Sequence record: OZ035811.1
Reading direction: 5' to 3' (one strand)
DNA: 45,013 bases
DNA from: Dhillonvirus LM40P1
The notes below the pieces were generated by a model. That model searched no databases, was not told the origin of the DNA, and saw nothing but the letters and a program-made list of their open reading frames with translations. Shown here in pieces: positions 5,796 through 40,930 of this stretch; position 1 is the stretch's first letter, and each line of letters begins with the position of its first letter. The position numbers and the translations under genes were made by a program.

Positions 5796-5825
5796 TGTTG
5801 TTTCCTCGTTTGTTGGTGTGCAACC

Positions 5826-5854
5826 AATATATTGCAACCAATTAGCCAATGCAA
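5826..5854 (-). promoter_or_regulatory. sigma70-like promoter (TTGCAT-17-TATATT) with ATTGGTTGCA repeats
   Basis: -35/-10 hexamers at 17 bp spacing on minus strand, about 30 bp upstream of the 5795 start; same architecture as four other leftward promoters. Confidence 0.5.
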
Positions 5855-11121: not shown

Positions 11122-11435
11122 TTGAGGCGGCGCGACGCTTCTATGGTCCGCCGCCACCGTCCGAAGACCTTGCCGCTAGTTTATGGGGTGCGGCCCCCGA
11201 AGATATTTGTCCGCCAGTTGCATTATGGCCTGATAACGTACAGGTCGTTGCCGTTTTCACTGACTGCTCAACGCAGTGGCGCACCGGTTTTAACGGCGCA
11301 TACGGCATCGACTACGGCGTGCTGGAATGGCTATTTAAAATGCACGGCATCGAAAATGAGAAGCGAGCTTTTAAAGATATCAAGTTAATGGAGCGTATTG
11401 CACTCGACGAAATTGCAGCACAACAGGCCGGGTAA
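10759..11435 (+). CDS. tail assembly chaperone frameshift fusion product (lambda GT-like)
   Basis: -1 frame continuation to TAA at 11433-11435 with protein-like composition; the same-frame ORF after the stop is Arg-rich junk. Confidence 0.5.
11112..11118 (+). other. programmed -1 ribosomal frameshift slippery heptamer A AAA AAC
   Basis: 0-frame codons GAA AAA AAC TAA; -1 frame is open from 11112 to 11435 and encodes a sensible protein. Confidence 0.55.
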
Positions 11436-11448
11436 TTCCGGCCTTTTT
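11426..11448 (+). terminator. rho-independent terminator
   Basis: GGCCGG...CCGGCC hairpin followed by TTTTT. Confidence 0.55.
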
Positions 11449-11452
11449 CATA

Positions 11453-11576
11453 GCGGGACGTCCTGCTTGTCCCGTTTTTGTCCCGCTGTCCCGCCCCGCC
11501 AAAAACTGCATACCTATTCAGAAATACTGCATAAAACCAAAACGGGACAAAAACGGGACAAGCAGGACGTCCCGCC
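11453..11576. repeat. inverted repeat pair (about 32 bp arms) built from TTGTCCCG/CGGGACAA iterons and GGGACGTCC
   Basis: 11453-11484 is the reverse complement of 11543-11576. Confidence 0.7.
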
Positions 11577-11599
11577 TCAAAAGTGCATATCTATGCAGT

Positions 11600-11772
11600 T
11601 TTCATGCATAAAACGAACGGGACAAAAACGGGACAAACTGCAAGCGGGACAGAGCGGGACGTCCCGCCGTCCCTGCCAGAGCTGCCGCGGGTTTCAGCCG
11701 ATCGGGACAGGCGGGACAAAGCCCAGTCTTTCAGACTAGACGGGGGTCAATGGCCCCCTCCGTCTGAGACTG
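11600..11772 (+). repeat. non-coding module copy 1: TGCATAAAAC, CGGGACAA iterons, GGGACGTCCCGCC palindrome, GCGGGTTT box, conserved hairpin
   Basis: About 170 bp with roughly 80 percent identity by eye to 39959-40131; iterons at 11 bp spacing. Confidence 0.7.
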
Positions 11773-11839
11773 AATAAGGTTGGTTGCAAAATGACTGATA
11801 CAATACAAACGGCAACTTGCATAAAAAGGGGACTGCATA

Positions 11840-21946: not shown

Positions 21947-21975
21947 AATATAGTGCAACCAATACGTGATTGCAA
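21947..21975 (-). promoter_or_regulatory. sigma70-like promoter (TTGCAA-17-TATATT) with ATTGGTTGCA repeats
   Basis: Minus strand reads ATTGGTTGCAATCACGTATTGGTTGCACTATATT, about 30 bp upstream of the lipoprotein start. Confidence 0.55.
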
Positions 21976-21998
21976 CCAATTTATGAGGAGTTTTCGCT

Positions 21999-27791: not shown

Positions 27792-27820
27792 AATATAATG
27801 CAACCAATCTCGCAATGCAA
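27792..27820 (-). promoter_or_regulatory. sigma70-like promoter (TTGCAT-17-TATATT) with ATTGGTTGCA repeats
   Basis: Minus strand ATTGGTTGCATTGCGAGATTGGTTGCATTATATT. Confidence 0.55.
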
Positions 27821-27825
27821 CCAAT

Positions 27826-33551: not shown

Positions 33552-34271
33552 TTAGCGGCGTCGACGTTTACGTGGTGCTTCGTCTTCGTCATCGTCGTCA
33601 TCTTCATCACGGCGGCGCTTAGACTTGCGCGGTTTTTCATCTTCATCATCGTCGTCACGACGTTTTGACTTTTTGGATTTACGCGGTGCTTCGTCTTCGT
33701 CATCATCCAGGTCGTCGTCAGAGCAATATGCACCGCCGCCGCCACCGAAGGAATCCCCATCATCACGGAAGCGCATACCCAGCAGACCACAGCCTAAGCC
33801 TTTGCCGTTGGTATTGTTCCAGGCCCAAATATCTAAGGAAACGTTGCAATAGCAACCGGAATAGATTTCCTTCCCTTCGATTTCGTCGCCGTCGATGGTC
33901 AGACCCTGCTCCGTCTGCTTCTCGCCTTCGGAAGTCTGGATGATCGGCTGTTTGAATGATTTAGCGTTGATATACAGCTTACCTTCAAACTCTTCCGTTA
34001 CTTCTTCACGCTCATCTCCATCTCGAACGGCACATTCTTTCGAATCCTGCGCGTAGTGGCGGTCCATCCACTTATCGGCGTTCTTCTCAGACTTCAGTTT
34101 TTCGGTGAGCACTGCGCGTGCCGCCGCTTCCACTTTGTCCACCTGCGGATCTTCTTTATCAAGAATAATCACCGCACGATATGCCGGTTTTTGTCCATCC
34201 TGTTTAGGGGTATCACGCTCCCAAATTTTCAGGAAGCATACACGTACATTTTTCAGGTTGACTTTAGCCAT
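33552..34271 (-). CDS. putative ssDNA-binding protein with repetitive charged C-terminal tail
   Basis: ATG at 34271 with GAGGAA SD; T7 gp2.5-like overall layout; three tandem DDDEDEAPRKSKRRR-type units at C-terminus. Confidence 0.4.
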   Translation of the reverse strand: MAKVNLKNVRVCFLKIWERDTPKQDGQKPAYRAVIILDKEDPQVDKVEAAARAVLTEKLKSEKNADKWMDRHYAQDSKECAVRDGDEREEVTEEFEGKLYINAKSFKQPIIQTSEGEKQTEQGLTIDGDEIEGKEIYSGCYCNVSLDIWAWNNTNGKGLGCGLLGMRFRDDGDSFGGGGGAYCSDDDLDDDEDEAPRKSKKSKRRDDDDEDEKPRKSKRRRDEDDDDDEDEAPRKRRRR

Positions 34272-34367
34272 TTTCCAATTCCTCATTTCACATGTATCGG
34301 GGTTATTAGAAGCCACCCCGTCCGGCTTGGTTGCTAATGTACTTGGTTGCGTTTCCGCGGTCAAGTG

Positions 34368-36505: not shown

Positions 36506-37009
36506 TTAGTCTTCCAGTTCGAAATAGGTTTCGACAATTTCTTTCAGTTCGGTGTGGAAGTCTTCAACGTCGTCATCTTCCAGCTTAGCCACAGTCTTGA
36601 TTTCGAACGATTCCAGCAGGTCGTCAAATTCGTCGTTCGCGTCGTCATCGTCGCCGCCTGCAATGATTGCCGCGTATTGTGCAATTTCATCGCGCATTTC
36701 TTTCAGCGGATCGGCGTCTTTCTTAGCCTTCACTTTGCCCTTGCCTTTGGCTGGCTTTTCTTCCGGTTCGTCTTCGTCGTCGTCATCTTCTACGACTTCT
36801 TTTTTCGCCTTGCCCTTAGCCGTGGACTTCTTAGCAGGTTTCTTATCTTCCTGCTCGTCATCTTCGTCTTTGGCTTCTTCTTTCTTAGCCTTAGACGGTT
36901 TCTTATCTTCCTGCTTACCAACGGCAGCGCCCTGGGTTTCGTAATGTTTAGCGATGGTTTCCAGTGCTACTACGCCGCGAGTAATCAGATTCAGGATTTG
37001 CTCAAACAT
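36506..37009 (-). CDS. highly charged low-complexity early protein
   Basis: ATG at 37009 with GGAGAC SD; first gene of leftward early operon; K/E/D-rich with acidic C-terminal half. Confidence 0.5.
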   Translation of the reverse strand: MFEQILNLITRGVVALETIAKHYETQGAAVGKQEDKKPSKAKKEEAKDEDDEQEDKKPAKKSTAKGKAKKEVVEDDDDEDEPEEKPAKGKGKVKAKKDADPLKEMRDEIAQYAAIIAGGDDDDANDEFDDLLESFEIKTVAKLEDDDVEDFHTELKEIVETYFELED

Positions 37010-37056
37010 GGTGTGTCTCCGTTTAGTTAAAAGTGAATGTCGTTTCGACGAGGTGA

Positions 37057-37086
37057 ATAATAGATTGGTTGCAGGATGGGTGTCAA
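37057..37086 (-). promoter_or_regulatory. strong sigma70-like early promoter (TTGACA, 17-18 bp spacer, TATTAT)
   Basis: Perfect -35 on minus strand; spacer contains TGCAACCAAT; A11 tract immediately upstream. Confidence 0.55.
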
Positions 37087-37096
37087 CAACTAATTT

Positions 37097-37107
37097 AAAA
37101 AAAAAAA
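37097..37107. repeat. A11 homopolymer in divergent promoter region
   Basis: Eleven consecutive A on plus strand. Confidence 0.9.
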
Positions 37108-37202
37108 TCCCCGAAGCAAAACGCAACGGGGATAACCATAAGAGACAATGAGACTGGTTTTATTATTACACGCGCGCGCACCCGTTTCAATATACAAAAC
37201 AG

Positions 37203-37262: not shown

Positions 37263-37556
37263 GTGAATACGACTAAATTGAATGCTTTGTTAGATATGGT
37301 TGAGAATGGTGTTGATGTTGGTGCGGCCCGCGACGCTATTAACGTTGCGTTCAAAGACCTGGCCTACAAACTGGAATTACTGAACGGTACGGCAGCGAGC
37401 AAGCTGCAAAAGCATAACGAAGAAATGGAAGAATACAAAAAGCAGGTTATCAGACTGCGCGAAGAGGGTAAGTCCTGGGCAATGATTGCCGAGTTAACGG
37501 GTATTAATCAGAGCACCGTTCGTTCTTGGGTACGCAATACTAAAACTGCTAAGTAA
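37263..37556 (+). CDS. HTH DNA-binding protein (candidate transcription regulator)
   Basis: GTG start with GGAGAC SD; C-terminal helix-turn-helix-like segment SWAMIAELTGINQSTVRSW. Confidence 0.5.
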   Translation: MNTTKLNALLDMVENGVDVGAARDAINVAFKDLAYKLELLNGTAASKLQKHNEEMEEYKKQVIRLREEGKSWAMIAELTGINQSTVRSWVRNTKTAK

Positions 37557-37568
37557 GGAATTGAGACA

Positions 37569-39833
37569 ATGAGAAATATAGAATTTGCGATCACACCCCC
37601 CGCTAAGAAAGGCGAATCTGCGGTAGCTCATAACCAGTCCATGACTACCGCCGAGTTTTTCGAATTTATCCAGGATGCACCGGTAGTGTCGTCAGTTTGC
37701 ATTAACGGTACTGAAGATAAAAAAGAATATGCGCGACGTAAGCGTAAAGGCGACGGCATTGTGGCTACAACCGCCGATGGCACGCGTAAAAAGACTGGCG
37801 TGGTTAGCCGCTCGATCCTGTTCTTCGACCTGGACCGTGCTGACAACCGCACACTTACCCGCTGCCGCAGGGCTTTCCGCAAGTCCGGCCTGGAATATGT
37901 CTACCACACCACCACCGGCGACCGCCACCCGTTGAAAGACGGCAAGCGCTGTGTGCGTTTCCTGGTGCTGACAAACAAGCCAGTTCCGGCGGAAGACCTG
38001 GGCCGCGCGCAGGCTGCACTGCTTGAGCAACTGGGTCTTACCGACGCGGGCTTTGATGACTGCTCGAAAGACACAAACCGCCTTATGTACCTGCCCCACC
38101 AGCAGGCTAAGGTCGAGTGCCATGAAGGTAAACGCGCTAACGTGCGTCGTCTGCTTCGCCTGGCTGACAAGATGGGTATTGAGCAGGAAACGTTTCGCCG
38201 TGAACTGGTGCAGGGCGACGACGAGCAGATGAACGGCATCCTCGACTGGTGTTTCCAGGCTGGTTTTGAGCCGTTACCATCCGGGCGCGGTTATGAAGTA
38301 CCGTGCCCAAACGAACATCTGCACTCTGGTGAAGGGTCTACCGCTATCATGCTTAAGGATGGCGAGATTCGTTTCAAATGTATGCACACCGGCAACGGAT
38401 GCTGTTCTGAACTGAACAAACACCAACACCTGGCGCTGCGAATGATTGGTATCCCGGATATTTATAACGTGGAGCCACACAACATGTCACGCAAACAGAT
38501 CTCGGCAATCCTGCCGGGTCTGGACGACGAAGAAGTGGACGCGCAGTACGAGCACATGGTTGACCTGGTGGGTGAAGGTGAGGATTATGCGTCCTGTACT
38601 GACGCAGACCTGGAAGACGAACCGACGGCGTTGTTCTCGAAGCACGACCCGATCATCGAAGGTCTGATTAACTTCAAATCGACCTGGTACGCAGCGGGTG
38701 AGTCGAACATTGGTAAGTCCTTCTTTGTCATGGGTCAGATGGCTGCCGTTGCCGCTGGCATCCCGTTCGGCGGCGCGAAGGTCGTCCAGTCCCATTGCTT
38801 CTACTTCGATGCGGAAGGTGGCGAGGCGTCACTGCAACGTAAAGAAGCGTTGCAGATTAAATATGAGCACGACCTGGACAAGCTGCACATTATCGACCTT
38901 CAGGCACGCGGCTGGGATATTACGAGCAAGTCCGGCCTGCGTGAAGTCATCAGCTTTATCAACCGCACCGCGGATGGTGAGCCGGTCGGCCTGGTGGCGT
39001 TCGACTCCCTTAACCAGACCGTAGCGCTGCGTTCGGCTGACGCCAAACCGTTCGATGAGAACAACGCCAGCGATATGGGTGAGATTGTCAAGGCGCTGAA
39101 AGCCATTGCGGAAAACACAGGCGGCAGTGCGGGCGTCATCCACCACCCGGCGAAGGGTGCAAACGGCAGCAGATCCCCGCGTGGGTCCGGTGCGCTACAT
39201 GGCGCGGTGGATTCTGCATTCTTCCTGGAACAGCCAGACGAGAATCAGCCAGGCCAGCTTAACCTCTATCATGAGAAAGCCCGTAACGGCGTGAAACAGG
39301 GTCCGCGCGGCTTCGTGCTACTGAAGTGCAAAGTGTCCATTAACGAGCGCAAGTCCGACACGTTCGAAGCGCACCAGTCCACTAACCCTGGTCCAGACTT
39401 CGGCGATGTAGTTGCCGGTTGGGACGTCAAGCCAATCCAGGCCACCCCGCGTGATGAGACTCTGTACCTTGTACCGGTAGCTCTGGCCCCGTTCGCTATC
39501 GAACAGGCGAAGGCCGCGGGCAAGCAGGCTGTTAAGGAAGAAAACCCCGCCGGTCCGCGCAATGAAAAAGAGAAAGTGCTTTACGCAGCGCTCGAAGCGT
39601 TGATGGAAGAGAATCCGGGACACCATGGCTTCAGCAAATCGGCAATCGTCCGCAAAGCCGGACTGGCGAAAGGTGGCACATCGACGAAGCCAATAGACGA
39701 TATGCGTGAGCGCGGAATCATCGGCTTTTACAAAGACCCGGACACCGGGGCCATTTACGGGTCGTCGAATCTGGTTATCAATTCACAAATACCTATGCAA
39801 TTGACGGCGACGGATGATGATTTGAAAGATTAA
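37569..39833 (+). CDS. primase-helicase (N-terminal primase-like domain, zinc motif, RecA-type ATPase)
   Basis: Walker A GESNIGKS, Walker B-like VGLVAFDSL, Cys/His cluster CPNEHLH...CMHTGNGC. Confidence 0.65.
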   Translation: MRNIEFAITPPAKKGESAVAHNQSMTTAEFFEFIQDAPVVSSVCINGTEDKKEYARRKRKGDGIVATTADGTRKKTGVVSRSILFFDLDRADNRTLTRCRRAFRKSGLEYVYHTTTGDRHPLKDGKRCVRFLVLTNKPVPAEDLGRAQAALLEQLGLTDAGFDDCSKDTNRLMYLPHQQAKVECHEGKRANVRRLLRLADKMGIEQETFRRELVQGDDEQMNGILDWCFQAGFEPLPSGRGYEVPCPNEHLHSGEGSTAIMLKDGEIRFKCMHTGNGCCSELNKHQHLALRMIGIPDIYNVEPHNMSRKQISAILPGLDDEEVDAQYEHMVDLVGEGEDYASCTDADLEDEPTALFSKHDPIIEGLINFKSTWYAAGESNIGKSFFVMGQMAAVAAGIPFGGAKVVQSHCFYFDAEGGEASLQRKEALQIKYEHDLDKLHIIDLQARGWDITSKSGLREVISFINRTADGEPVGLVAFDSLNQTVALRSADAKPFDENNASDMGEIVKALKAIAENTGGSAGVIHHPAKGANGSRSPRGSGALHGAVDSAFFLEQPDENQPGQLNLYHEKARNGVKQGPRGFVLLKCKVSINERKSDTFEAHQSTNPGPDFGDVVAGWDVKPIQATPRDETLYLVPVALAPFAIEQAKAAGKQAVKEENPAGPRNEKEKVLYAALEALMEENPGHHGFSKSAIVRKAGLAKGGTSTKPIDDMRERGIIGFYKDPDTGAIYGSSNLVINSQIPMQLTATDDDLKD

Positions 39834-39842
39834 ATTTTGCGC

Positions 39843-39921
39843 GCATTGGTTGCCAATATGGTTAATTTGTGCGCGCATTGGTTGCCAGATTGGGTATTAA
39901 ATCTATATCGCATTGGTTGCC
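39843..39921 (+). repeat. three direct repeats of GCATTGGTTGCC at 32-35 bp spacing
   Basis: Copies at 39843-39854, 39875-39886, 39910-39921, each followed by an A/T-rich hexamer. Confidence 0.75.
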
Positions 39922-39958
39922 GTGTAGTGCTAAATAAGTGAATAGTTATGCAAAATAA

Positions 39959-40131
39959 GTGCATAAAACAAACGGGACAAAAACGGGACAAACGACAAAC
40001 GGGACAAAACGGGACGTCCCGCCGTCCCCCTCAGGAGTGGCGCGGGTTTGAGGCAAACGGGACAAGCGGGACAGACCACAGTCTTTCAGACTAGACGGGG
40101 GGTATTGTCCCCCCTCCGTCTGAGACTGCAT
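39959..40131 (+). repeat. non-coding module copy 2: TGCATAAAAC, CGGGACAA iterons, GGGACGTCCCGCC palindrome, GCGGGTTT box, conserved hairpin
   Basis: Matches 11600-11772 in element order; hairpin stem conserved while loop differs (tattgt versus tcaatgg). Confidence 0.7.
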
Positions 40132-40288
40132 AAAATCTCTGGTTGCATAATCAACGGCAGCATAGTGAAAAATGCGGCGGGGGTAGATCTCGGCAACCAA
40201 TGCGGGTTGAAGAGTGGAGAGTGAAAAATGCAGTTTGGTAATGACAACTGATAGCGATCAGCATTTTCATGCGCGTGATTAATATTGG

Positions 40289-40317
40289 TTGCATTCGTCC
40301 TGCCAGGGTGTTAGATT
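40289..40317 (+). promoter_or_regulatory. sigma70-like promoter (TTGCAT-17-TAGATT) flanked by ATTGGTTGCA motifs
   Basis: ATTGGTTGCATtcgtcctgccagggtgTTAGATTGGTTGCAC about 30 bp upstream of the 40346 gene. Confidence 0.5.
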
Positions 40318-40345
40318 GGTTGCACACCAACATGAGGACTGAACG

Positions 40346-40651
40346 ATGAGAGCATTAATCTGGAATTACACAATGGCTGTGGCGAAGCTGTACGAAGCGA
40401 AGCACACAAACGGCAACGCAGACGACGCGCGCCAGGCTGTCATCCTGGCCCAGCAGGGAATCATGAACGCGTTCGACAATATGTTTGCCAGCCTGGACGA
40501 ACTGGAACCGCTGCGCGTGGCAATCTGCGAATATGCGATGGCATTTGCCCGTGAACGCCTGGCATACCGGTTTGGTATCGGGAAAACGGCAGTGGCTAAC
40601 ATCGCCCGCATTCAGGCCCAGCGTGAGCTGCACGCCATACTCGCGAAATAA
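40346..40651 (+). CDS. hypothetical protein
   Basis: ATG with GAGGA SD; 101 aa. Confidence 0.5.
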   Translation: MRALIWNYTMAVAKLYEAKHTNGNADDARQAVILAQQGIMNAFDNMFASLDELEPLRVAICEYAMAFARERLAYRFGIGKTAVANIARIQAQRELHAILAK

Positions 40652-40660
40652 GGGGCCAAA

Positions 40661-40930
40661 ATGACACGCAGACGCGCTCAATGGCTTTCATGGCACATTC
40701 CCCTACATAGCATCCGTTTATGGGCGCAGAACGCGATTGAGGGCGATTCTGTGTTCTGGAGCTATCGGGATGACGTCAAGCCGCTGACGCAGACCAGAAA
40801 GCTGCACCAGTTCATGAACGAACACGGACTGCCGGTGAAAACATCATTGCAACCAATCGGCATCCGTATTACATTACGCCGTAAGCCAATCGTTGAGCAG
40901 GTTGGCAAACACAGGAGACTGACAAAATGA
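40661..40930 (+). CDS. hypothetical protein
   Basis: ATG with AAGGGG SD; 89 aa. Confidence 0.45.
   Translation: MTRRRAQWLSWHIPLHSIRLWAQNAIEGDSVFWSYRDDVKPLTQTRKLHQFMNEHGLPVKTSLQPIGIRITLRRKPIVEQVGKHRRLTK

Follow-up and report, generated by a model that had tools for sequence, protein, structure and literature searches.

The SaPI replication proteins Rep and PriRep5 carry a C-terminal winged helix that binds 5-6 nt iterons located directly downstream of rep, around an AT-rich centre (PMC9371898). The locus analysed here follows the primase-helicase gene of a complete Dhillonvirus genome of the HK578/SO-1 group, whose host is E. coli. This genome, the whole 45,013-nucleotide stretch of DNA that was analysed, is called the window; the repeat module after the primase-helicase gene is called copy 2, and its relative at 11.6 kb copy 1. 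The candidate origin resembles the SaPI origins in its position directly downstream of the initiator ORF, in iterons (six to twelve in the SaPIs) that point both ways and flank or adjoin an AT-rich segment, and in a proposed initiator that is itself a helicase; the primase fused in SaPI5 and the specificity that differs between islands extend the likeness (PMC9371898). The SaPI Reps are SF3 or MCM-like AAA+ motors, whereas the phage protein is a RecA-fold helicase of the RepA type, and no sequence homology was detected between them. Host and element type also differ, and the phage adds a long conserved hairpin and has two copies of the module.

The order of iterons, GC-rich segment, AT-rich segment and stem-loops is similar at oriV of RSF1010 (IncQ), which also uses a RepA-type helicase. 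The iterons of RSF1010 are ~20 bp, whereas those of the phage are 7-8 bp, and the phage fuses three functions in one chain. RSF1010 has two ssi sites on opposite strands and the phage one conserved hairpin; a second predicted fold in the phage module is formed by inverted and direct iterons, and the primase domain is RepB'-like in its modelled fold. The RSF1010 stem-loops ssiA and ssiB are primase entry sites (PMC4234260). P4 alpha joins a primase and a helicase to a C-terminal winged helix that acts on octamer repeats at the origin (PMC4234260). It differs from the phage protein in its Toprim primase. The alpha helicase belongs to SF3. P4 also contains crr, a second repeat cluster elsewhere in the genome that is required in cis, and crr resembles the two copies of the phage. 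Proteins of the pRN1 ORF904 and Bordetella phage BIP-1 type combine an AEP Prim-Pol, a helicase and a C-terminal winged helix with a stem-loop origin within ~170 bp downstream of the gene, and the integrity of the pRN1 stem-loop is required for replication (PMC4234260). The pRN1 type has no iterons and an SF3 helicase, whereas iterons dominate the phage module and its stem-loop is ~50 nt.

SPP1, a siphovirus of ~44 kb, has two origins of like organisation, oriL and oriR, with repeats in direct orientation and an unwinding element rich in AT; one lies at the initiator gene and the other in a late-structural-gene gap, and the same protein binds both (PMC6316719). OriR is proposed to stall forks, leading to a switch to concatemer synthesis (PMC6316719). 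In SPP1 the gp38 initiator is separate from the loader and the DnaB-type helicase, the primase is that of the host, oriL is embedded in the gene for the initiator, and the proteins show no relationship to those of the Dhillonvirus. Lambda O follows the logic of initiator and iterons that is proposed here. At the T7 origin, promoters for the phage RNA polymerase precede an AT-rich region, and a non-coding region near replication genes is the sole trait it shares with the phage module, which is dominated by predicted protein-binding iterons. An analogy with the T7 primary origin, drawn in the first-pass annotation, is not sustained: a sigma-70-type promoter scan, whose reach excludes phage-type promoters, called none in either module region (39500-40700 for copy 2), and the logic appears to be that of an initiator with iterons, not of transcription-primed initiation. 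No phage RNA polymerase gene was recognised among the window ORFs on inspection, without a dedicated search. The design is known in kind; in the Dhillonvirus group it is predicted from sequence and models.

Anatomy of the repeat module and its two copies

A non-coding gap of 512 bp separates the stop of the primase-helicase ORF at 39833 from the start of the next RBS-bearing ORF at 40346. Two ORFs that overlap the module, 39946-40200 on the minus strand and 40048-40224 on the plus strand, were rejected as coding because indels among relatives break their frames, and the gap does not appear to encode a conserved protein because 1-nt indels occur across it in the relatives' alignments. A repeat search of the window paired 39936-40113 with 11581-11758 (81% over 178 nt) and 40110-40133 with 11754-11777 (96%), and pairwise alignment showed 39936-40133 and 11581-11777 to be diverged direct copies of one colinear module of ~195 nt. 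Repeat search, alignment and ORFs confirm the earlier description of a repeat and hairpin module in two copies, one of them in the 512 bp gap. The stretch 39959-40131 is the core; the module truly starts at ~39924, where its AT-rich part begins.

Table 1. Coordinates of the copy 2 module, its surroundings, the proposed initiator and region A.
Feature	Position	Strand	Details
Region A (copy 1)	11445..11839	+	between intrinsic terminator 11425-11444 and tape-measure gene
Primase-helicase gene, proposed initiator	37569..39833	+	754 aa; four domains
Winged-helix coding region, proposed iteron reader	39564..39779	+	aa 666-737; structure model
Three tandem repeats, left flank of module	39830..39928	+	32-35 nt, each with ATTGGTTGCC
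AT-rich segment, proposed DNA-unwinding element	39924..39971	.	dyad TGAATA-GT-TATGCA 39939-39952; TGCATAAAAC 39960-39969
Four direct iterons	39972..40016	+	ACGGGACA at 39972, 39983, 39999; ACGGGACG at 40009
Two inverted iterons	40016..40029	-	GTCCCG 40016-40021; GTCCCC 40024-40029
GC-rich spacer	40030..40056	.	..TGGCGCGGGTTTGAGGCAA
Two further direct iterons	40057..40073	+	ACGGGACA 40057-40064; GCGGGACA 40066-40073
Long imperfect hairpin	40079..40128	.	CAGTCT..CAGAC..GGGGGG / CCCCCC..GTCTG AGACTG
Right-flank conserved motifs	40127..40164	+	TGCATAA at 40127 and 40144; ACGGCAGCA 40156-40164
Weak promoter-like site, outside the origin module	40289..40317	+	TTGCAT-N17-TAGATT; ahead of gene 40346-40651

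Copy 2 runs from an AT-rich segment with a dyad through phased direct iterons, two inverted iterons, a GC-rich spacer and two direct iterons to a long imperfect hairpin. The iteron ACGGGACA occurs nine times in the window against 1.35 expected, always within the two module regions, and none of 100 shuffles reached nine; 21 of the 38 window copies of the hexamer CGGGAC fall in ~360 bp of 45 kb. Iteron spacings in copy 2 are 11, 16, 10 and 9 bp, about one helical turn. The 40-bp window at 39934 is 75% AT, in the top 0.1% of genome windows, and adjoins the iterons; the 40-bp windows at 40004-40024 are 28-33% AT, in the bottom 0.4-2.5% of the genome. Together with iteron 4 the inverted iterons form a loop-less palindrome, GGGAC|GTCCC. 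In the predicted single-stranded DNA fold of 39925-40135 the two further direct iterons pair with the inverted iterons, and the long hairpin has a DNA folding energy of -14.7 kcal/mol (z = -4.5). The motif of the left-flank tandem repeats is separate from the iterons, genome-wide and promoter-associated; the window contains 17 occurrences of ATTGGTTGC, where 0.65 would be expected. Readings of the dyad TGMATA-NN-TATKCA and the spacer as DnaA box, IHF, CRP, Fur, LexA or sigma-54 sites fit poorly by eye against the consensus sequences. The module marks the border of the early-right operon with the next promoter, a place at which one would equally expect a terminator or a regulatory element.

Region A contains three iteron clusters, two AT-rich segments with dyads, of the kind found in copy 2, the core module (11581-11777) and a hairpin (11724-11772), along with a perfect 33-nt inverted repeat (11453-11485 / 11543-11575). 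Both copies were found in 158 phage records, almost every one of which has two locations, and the position of each copy is constant. Among 33 copies from 16 Dhillonvirus genomes, A-A and B-B identity is 85% and A-B identity 70%, so that A and B form separate old clades. The four direct iterons are invariant in all 33 copies, as is the 19-bp stem sequence of the hairpin, whose loop is variable. This invariance of iterons and hairpin stems at an A-B identity of 70% points to selection on both copies. Comparison of the lineages indicates that copy 2 is at the ancestral site and that copy 1 is a derived, Dhillonvirus-specific duplicate, which inverts the label of second copy that copy 2 had been given. 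The repeats are not new as such: in the GenBank record of SO-1 the two blocks had already been entered as repeat regions, named A and B, with a note that begins 'possible'. A literature search found no paper describing these SO-1 regions.

The primase-helicase and its repeats across lineages

The primase-helicase is predicted to combine a primase of the AEP/Prim-Pol kind at its N terminus, a Cys/His motif, a RecA-fold helicase that is RepA-like (aa 355-531) and, at the C terminus, a winged helix. These folds were taken from models because sequence searches gave little: protein and profile searches of the PDB returned just weak RepA matches and spurious repeat-protein matches, and NCBIfam gave no match. 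The predicted model has a winged helix in the last ~100 aa and an AEP primase fold in the N-terminal domain, with RSF1010 RepB' among the top structural matches. The helicase is of the RepA type, and RSF1010 RepA is the sole solved helicase matched by sequence, weakly. A protein search with the C-terminal 176 aa alone gave no match, and the full-length query did give matches.

The module begins 0-100 nt past the primase-helicase stop in Dhillonvirus, Cornellvirus (SE1, FSL SP-031), phiEap-2 and five uncultured lineages, and distant relatives with primase-helicases only 38-49% identical keep the architecture. Each lineage has its own repeat (CGGGACA, CGGACAA, TCCGACA, AGGGATA, GGGGATG, GGGGAGA or CTCGCAA). 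The direct and inverted copies change together, and the relatives keep the order of direct followed by inverted iterons. Recognition as double-stranded DNA rather than as RNA fits this pattern because the two orientations co-change and the palindrome has no loop. Both copies contain the dyad TGMATA-NN-TATKC, which is shared by most of the distant lineages having different iterons, a 'gggttt..ttgccga'-like spacer recurs in relatives, and CACGGCARCA recurs past the module in distant lineages. A hairpin occupies the equivalent position in other lineages with a different stem sequence and retained pairing; this stem 'covariation' is a description of per-lineage folds, without formal covariation counts. 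Among relatives whose protein and winged helix are homologous, the L032-L040 group, the 33% group and Jerseyvirus lack an iteron module after the gene.

Helix 3 of the winged helix begins in seven different ways that pair up with the seven iteron types, and in these alignments iteron type tracks the C-terminal winged helix of the primase-helicase. A mosaic phage (L044) illustrates the association. Its protein is 97-100% identical to that of phiEap-2 (L041) over approximately the first 650 aa and 53% identical over the last ~115 aa. Its upstream genes are 95-98% identical to phiEap-2 in DNA, and its downstream genes resemble a phiEap-2-type relative (L042). The module between them is of the L043/L059 type, with six of eight iterons and an identical hairpin. 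In the mosaic, module and winged helix appear to have been exchanged together, in a swap that is not clean, with two CGGACA-type iterons retained. The co-variation of winged helix and iterons is confounded by physical linkage, because the coding region of the domain and the repeats lie within ~300 bp and any recombination would carry both. A small helix-turn-helix protein encoded upstream (37263-37556; HTH_23 / sigma-70 region 4-like) is disfavoured as the iteron reader because the upstream genes of the mosaic stay phiEap-2 type while the iterons change.

Origin model and rival readings

Copy 2, at ~39924-40133, is probably a phage replication origin of the iteron type that is bound in cis by the adjacent primase-helicase. 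The module has the features of an iteron origin: clustered direct and inverted repeats, an adjoining AT-rich element, linkage to the proposed initiator gene, and co-change of repeat and predicted DNA-binding domain, which are physically linked. Adjacency to a replication gene was the ground on which the first-pass annotation had suggested origin function; that suggestion is substantially strengthened by an architecture kept at 38-49% protein identity, by the co-change of repeat and winged helix and by the top-0.1% AT stretch. Literature searches found no origin mapping for any Dhillonvirus and no initiation experiment at the module. GC and AT skew follow the coding strand and gene orientation, reach their minimum near 37 kb, where the divergent early promoters lie, and give no origin signal.

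Anatomy, conservation, winged-helix co-variation and predicted folds are results of the analysis; the mechanism proposed for them has five steps. The winged helix would bind the 7-8 bp iterons, arranged as two direct pairs, an inverted pair, a spacer and a direct pair, and the bound protomers would build helicase rings in opposite orientations. The neighbouring 75% AT segment would then melt, and the strand so exposed would let the conserved long hairpin and the iterons of both orientations fold into structures that may aid loading or mark the start for the primase domain. Primers would finally be extended by the family A DNA polymerase of the phage. Copy 1 would be bound by the same protein and could be a second origin, a P4 crr-like enhancer or a barrier to forks in the manner of SPP1 oriR.

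In HK578, the mutations that allow escape from P2 OLD were mapped to the helicase-primase and its promoter; the authors of that study treat both as replication-initiation functions and propose that OLD senses single-strand hairpins at iteron origins (bioRxiv 10.64898/2026.07.10.737580). If the origin assignment is true, the module is a concrete candidate for the unmapped structure behind this escape result. A broader scheme is doubtful but can be stated. The phage group would carry an all-in-one IncQ-like system, with a RepB'-like primase, a RepA-like helicase and the iteron reader in one chain and an oriV-like site whose hairpin is a single-strand initiation signal, and the primase would start independently of the host primosome. 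The two copies would be paired: one would fire, and its partner would be either a second origin or a barrier to forks that turns replication to concatemer synthesis. The extruded hairpins of the origin would be what the sensors of defence systems, P2 OLD among them, detect in Dhillonviruses.

Of the E. coli phages that are isolated for therapy and for work on defence systems, Dhillonviruses are among the commonest. If the origin assignment is true, it provides a cis element of ~210 bp with a named reader domain and at least seven natural specificity pairs for swap tests of origin recognition by initiator-helicases. In engineering, deletions from these genomes or their recoding should proceed on the premise that both copies are probably essential in cis.

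Transcriptional control is an unlikely alternative to the origin assignment. Under it the iterons would be operator or activator sites and the hairpin a terminator or attenuator, together gating read-through. At copy 2 this read-through would run from the early-right operon with the primase-helicase into the lysis, packaging and head genes; at copy 1 it would enter the tape-measure and tail genes from the tail-chaperone genes. Both copies do lie at operon boundaries, oriented with transcription, and T-rich tails of the TTTATTCATT type follow the hairpin in non-Dhillon relatives. In the window, however, no T run comes after the hairpin, where the next letters are CATAAAATC in copy 2 and AATAAGG in copy 1, and no plus-strand terminator was called at the copy 2 hairpin; the sole plus-strand call in both regions is the canonical terminator at 11425-11444, already 280 bp upstream of the copy 1 hairpin. 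Minus-strand 'terminators' called in copy 2 are the iteron palindrome. An invariant 19-bp stem is also more constraint than a terminator requires. A promoter ahead of the next genes, as the first-pass annotation had it, would suit a control function. The site after copy 2 is weak: it matches the sigma-70 consensus at 7 of 12 positions (own count) and was not called by the scan. Relatives have near-consensus promoters at this position after the module. The promoter-associated ATTGGTTGC flanks copy 2, and phage Esher4 carries GTGAATAGT in the spacer of a TTGACA/TATAGT promoter beside a divergent, unannotated ORF that is helix-turn-helix-like by eye. Against these points, iteron type follows the winged helix of the primase-helicase and neither the small DNA-binding genes upstream, which are 95-98% identical in the mosaic, nor the downstream genes. 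The two functions may coexist, with an origin-bound initiator that also blocks read-through.

A structured non-coding RNA is very unlikely. It would be, for instance, an RNA for processive antitermination, as HK022 put and lambda nut are, or a protein-sponge RNA with repeated motifs that contain GGA. Two copies in the orientation of transcription, a stable hairpin and stems that vary in sequence by lineage with pairing retained are compatible with an RNA, but inverted and direct repeats co-change in every lineage, as expected for a reader of duplex DNA and not for an RNA-binding protein, and the loop-less GGGAC|GTCCC cannot form an RNA hairpin. Copy 1 is downstream, not upstream, of its terminator, and no promoter was found within or just before the module. 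A search of the whole window against Rfam 15 gave no match at the gathering threshold (best E-values 0.78 and 0.99, far below gathering), and no Rfam match at gathering or at E <= 1 backs the RNA reading.

A packaging (pac/cos) site, a site-specific recombination site or a selfish mobile repeat without phage function is highly improbable: terminase-binding sites also carry clustered short repeats and the element is duplicated inside the genome, but PhageTerm termini lie elsewhere and Opt-212 is headful (PMC9022532), the EE09 cos site ATCTTAAGGG lies away from the module (PMC10673088), the module has neither a transposase nor a recombinase gene next to it, and the fixed position of each copy in the 158 records, with A and B as old clades, argues against ongoing mobility.

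Anatomy and setting of the repeat module

The window is a complete Dhillonvirus genome (45,013 bp) of the HK578/SO-1 group of E. coli siphoviruses and has the gene order of HK578 and SO-1. The terminase, head, and tail genes run rightward, the replication and recombination genes run leftward from ~37.1 kb, and a rightward early operon begins at 37263. Around the module, the sequence shares 98.8% identity with Dhillonvirus LM40P1, and its identity to more than 100 other members is ~80%. The primase-helicase ORF (37569-39833, 754 aa) has its last nucleotide at 39833, and the first ORF after it to have a ribosome-binding site begins at 40346. This confirms the 512-bp gap described in the first-pass annotation. 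A weak promoter-like site lies ahead of this next gene, ~160 nt to the right of the module.

The repeated iteron/hairpin module claimed in that annotation is real and beyond chance, as judged by repeat pairing, octamer counts, and hairpin folding. A repeat search of the window paired 39936-40113 with 11581-11758 (81% over 178 nt) and 40110-40133 with 11754-11777 (96%), and pairwise alignment shows that copy 1 (within region A, 11445-11839) and copy 2 (region B) are a single colinear module of ~195 nt. All nine occurrences of the octamer ACGGGACA in the window (1.35 expected) fall inside the two regions and no shuffle attained nine, and 21 of the 38 CGGGAC hexamers are packed into ~360 bp. The long hairpin has a folding energy of -14.7 kcal/mol (z = -4.5) in copy 2 and -13.8 (z = -3.8) in copy 1 (11724-11772). 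As single-stranded DNA, the copy 2 module is predicted to form two adjoining hairpins (-35.3 kcal/mol, z = -3.4), the first pairing the inverted iterons with the last two direct iterons and the second being the conserved hairpin. The repeats had been noticed before. A 'region A' before the tape-measure gene and a 'region B' after the helicase-primase gene are marked in the GenBank entry for Sodalis phage SO-1, with the note 'direct, inverted and palindromic repeat sequences; sequence similarity with region A/B; possible ...'.

Positions of module parts and associated motifs (window coordinates unless a locus is named; L0xx, loci of primase-helicase relatives)
Feature	Position	Remark
Three tandem repeats	39830-39928	32-35 nt, each with ATTGGTTGCC
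AT-rich stretch	39924-39971	dyad TGAATA-GT-TATGCA and TGCATAAAAC; 40-bp window at 39934 is 75% AT, genome top 0.1%
Direct iterons (4)	39972, 39983, 39999, 40009
Inverted iterons (2)	40016, 40024	copy at 40016 and iteron 4 form the loop-less palindrome GGGAC/GTCCC
GC-rich spacer	between inverted iterons and last direct pair	AT content in genome bottom 0.4%
Further direct iterons (2)	40057, 40066
Long imperfect hairpin	40079-40128
TGCATAA motifs and ACGGCAGCA	right of hairpin
Dyad TGMATA-NN-TATKCA	39939-39952, 11507-11520, 11584-11597; L006 4047; L007 3960-4030
CACGGCARCA-type motif	40156-40164, 11807-11815	downstream of module in L036, L043, L045, L048, L061
ATTGGTTGC sites	5820-5842, 21955-21980, 26356, 27800-27825, 30778, 37064
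ATTGGTTGC sites	39845-39920, 40193, 40284-40323, 40849, 43488

Conservation of the module and co-variation with the winged helix

Loci with primase-helicase relatives were gathered from IMG/VR and phage records. The same order of parts directly follows the stop codon in lineages with only 38-49% protein identity, among them Cornellvirus SE1 and FSL SP-031, several uncultured groups, and phiEap-2 (an Enterobacter phage). First come one or two AT-rich dyads (TGAATAGTTATGCA, almost the sequence in copy 2), then direct repeats, two inverted repeats, a spacer like 'gggttt..ttgccga', two direct repeats, and a long composite hairpin, and past the hairpin are TTATTCA and CACGGCAGCA motifs and then a near-consensus promoter. 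The repeat is CGGGACA in the window and CGGACAA, TCCGACA, AGGGATA, GGGGATG, GGGGAGA, or CTCGCAA elsewhere. Between lineages the inverted repeats always shift together with the direct ones, as predicted for a protein that reads duplex DNA and not for an RNA-binding protein. The SE1 genome has one such cluster only; therefore, the site after the primase-helicase gene is ancestral and the 11.6-kb copy is a Dhillonvirus addition. Copy 2 had been labeled the "second copy", which reverses the order of the two. The module was not found after the primase-helicase gene in L032-L040 (loci at ~45% identity), a 33% identity group, or Jerseyvirus, where terminators, convergent genes, or promoters occupy the position.

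The candidate reader of the iterons is the modeled C-terminal winged helix of the primase-helicase (residues 666-737). In an alignment of 20 proteins, the start of its third helix varies with iteron type: KGGTSTK in the window, GGGN.RRR for CGGACAA, DGGRRRP for TCCGACA, and KGGGRY and KGGDRY for the similar repeats GGGGATG and GGGGAGA. The locus L044 is a natural mosaic. Its protein is 97-100% identical to that of phiEap-2 (L041) over the first ~650 residues and 53% identical over the last ~115, its upstream genes share 95-98% DNA identity with phiEap-2, and its downstream genes resemble those of L042, a phiEap-2-type relative. The L044 module is of the L043/L059 type, with CCGACA in six of eight iterons and an identical hairpin; two iterons are still of the CGGACA type. 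Iteron type thus goes with the predicted winged helix and not with the upstream small DNA-binding genes or the downstream genes. The mosaic supports a link between iterons and winged helix, with the caveat that domain and repeats are physically linked. Residues 355-531 match the RepA-type RecA-fold ATPase family AAA_25 (Pfam), and RSF1010 RepA is the only solved helicase matched by sequence, weakly. These matches justify the 'primase-helicase' label for a chain modeled as AEP primase, RepA-like helicase, and winged helix.

Two other motifs accompany the module. The dyad TGMATA-NN-TATKCA is almost constant across most lineages with differing iterons, and the factor reading it, from phage or host, may itself be conserved and distinct from the iteron reader. 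Phage Esher4, which lacks iterons, has GTGAATAGT in the spacer of a TTGACA/TATAGT promoter that adjoins a divergently oriented, unannotated ORF resembling, by eye, a helix-turn-helix gene. The conserved motif CACGGCARCA lies 3' of the module in many lineages whatever the iteron type, sometimes again ~25 nt on as CCGGCAGC.

Proposed origin function and rival explanations

Copy 2 is probably a replication origin of the initiator-iteron kind, read by the adjacent primase-helicase. An origin had been proposed here by analogy with the T7 primary origin; the cross-lineage architecture and the winged-helix link make an origin probable, and its kind is probably not that of T7. A scan of 39500-40700 called no sigma-70-type promoter and no gene for a phage RNA polymerase was recognized among the ORFs, leaving the T7 analogy unsupported, and the logic looks like that of an initiator with iterons. 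The cross-lineage architecture, lineage-specific iterons, winged-helix link, and initiator domain make-up are the additions of the present analysis. From the anatomy, conservation, co-variation, and predicted folds, we infer binding, melting, priming, and polymerase use as follows. The winged helix would bind the iterons, and on the direct-inverted-direct array protomers would form rings facing opposite ways. The AT-rich segment next to the iterons would melt, the exposed strand would fold into the iteron hairpin and the conserved hairpin, serving either as a loading aid or as a start mark for the primase domain, and the family A polymerase of the phage (31040-33454) would extend the primers.

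The main rival, a transcriptional boundary element, is unlikely. Both copies lie at operon boundaries, relatives have T-richer tails past the hairpin, and ATTGGTTGC, a motif associated with promoters, borders copy 2, but the window hairpin lacks a T run, a canonical terminator already stands 5' of copy 1, and iteron type tracks the predicted winged helix. A dual role is possible in which initiator bound at the module also blocks read-through. A structured RNA made from the module is quite improbable given that the repeats change irrespective of orientation, the GGGAC/GTCCC palindrome is loop-less, and there is no Rfam match. A packaging site, recombination site, or selfish repeat is at odds with the reported termini and with the constant location of each copy and can be given hardly any weight.

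The proposed initiator-iteron origin has known counterparts. The closest in logic is SaPI Rep/PriRep5, whose C-terminal winged helix binds 5-6-nt iterons directly 3' of the rep ORF, with an AT-rich center and helicase self-loading (PMC9371898); the SaPI motor belongs to another superfamily. The closest in parts is RSF1010, with iterons, GC-rich and AT-rich stretches, stem-loops on which the AEP primase RepB' acts, and RepA as its helicase (PMC4234260), but its three functions are on separate proteins and are fused here. The origin of pRN1 ORF904 is a stem-loop just 3' of the gene (PMC4234260), as the module follows the primase-helicase gene.

Restriction of Dhillonviruses by P2 OLD is reported in a July 2026 preprint, with HK578 mutants escaping either by a point mutation in helicase-primase gp46 or by a deletion within the gp45-gp46 promoter (bioRxiv 10.64898/2026.07.10.737580). 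OLD was proposed there to sense single-strand hairpins at iteron origins, and the HK578 origin was left unmapped (bioRxiv 10.64898/2026.07.10.737580). The module is the obvious candidate for this unmapped site. Many NCBI Salmonella enterica assemblies have 41-44-kb contigs with a Cornellvirus-type primase-helicase (protein matches P0028-P0103), which suggests whole phage genomes in bacterial isolates, in a carrier state or as persisting episomes. These contigs are of interest if the iteron origin supports plasmid-like maintenance.

Region A and other repeats in the window

Both copies are carried by 158 phage records, of which almost every one has two places. Among 33 A and B copies from 16 Dhillonvirus genomes, A-A and B-B identities are each 85% and A-B identity is only 70%; therefore, the duplication is older than the sampled radiation. 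The iterons, dyad, and hairpin stems are invariant in A and B alike, and the spacers and hairpin loop vary, with 1-nt indels. In these alignments the pattern points to selection acting on A and B alike and excludes a conserved coding frame for a protein in the module. Region A is more elaborate, with three iteron clusters, each centered on GGGAC/GTCCC, and two AT-rich segments with dyads between them, a layout kept in HK578, SO-1, and PC2. Iterons also make up a perfect 33-nt inverted repeat (11453-11485/11543-11575) around a 57-nt spacer that is AT-rich centrally, the same layout as in SaPI origins, where iterons face across an AT-rich center. By this likeness, region A may be no less 'complete' an origin than region B. 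The 44-kb siphovirus SPP1 has two origins of like organization, one in the late structural region, and initiator bound at the latter is proposed to stall forks, leading to concatemer synthesis (PMC6316719). This two-origin layout offers a ready hypothesis for the role of copy 1. A strong intrinsic terminator (11425-11444) lies directly 3' of the tail-chaperone genes and 5' of region A and the tape-measure gene; these genes are contiguous in most siphoviruses, unlike here. The stretch 11777-11839 yielded no convincing promoter for the tape-measure gene.

The 9-mer ATTGGTTGC occurs 17 times in the window versus 0.65 expected. It is paired 17 nt apart at four leftward sites, one copy being degenerate in two of them (ATTGGTTGCAw-N7-ATTGGTTGCAc-TATATT), so that a -35-like hexamer (TTGCAA/TTGCAT) and a -10 (TATATT) are separated by a 17-nt spacer. 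The pair resembles a promoter or operator signature specific to the phage, with the small sigma-70 region 4-like protein encoded at 37263-37556 as a candidate reader. In relatives, an analogous motif, ATGTTGGCTG, lies by modules and promoters, and the dominant repeat 3' of the primase-helicase gene at locus L046 is GCAACCAAC.

Plus-strand runs of GTC/ATC triplets (33567-33720 and 36542-36877, repeat families D1 and D3) lie within minus-strand genes and appear to encode acidic Asp/Glu-rich tracts in the leftward genes 33552-34364 and 36506-37126. They are read as low-complexity coding sequence and not as regulatory repeats. The SO-1 counterpart of gene 33552-34364 appears to be a Gp2.5-like SSB. 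A perfect 22-nt inverted repeat, AAGGGGCCGTTTGGCCCCTTTC (20703-20724/25171-25192), has a hairpin with flanking A/T runs in each arm. These two identical terminator-like hairpins, in opposite orientation around a 4.4-kb block of tail-fiber and membrane/lipoprotein genes, may delimit an exchangeable cassette.
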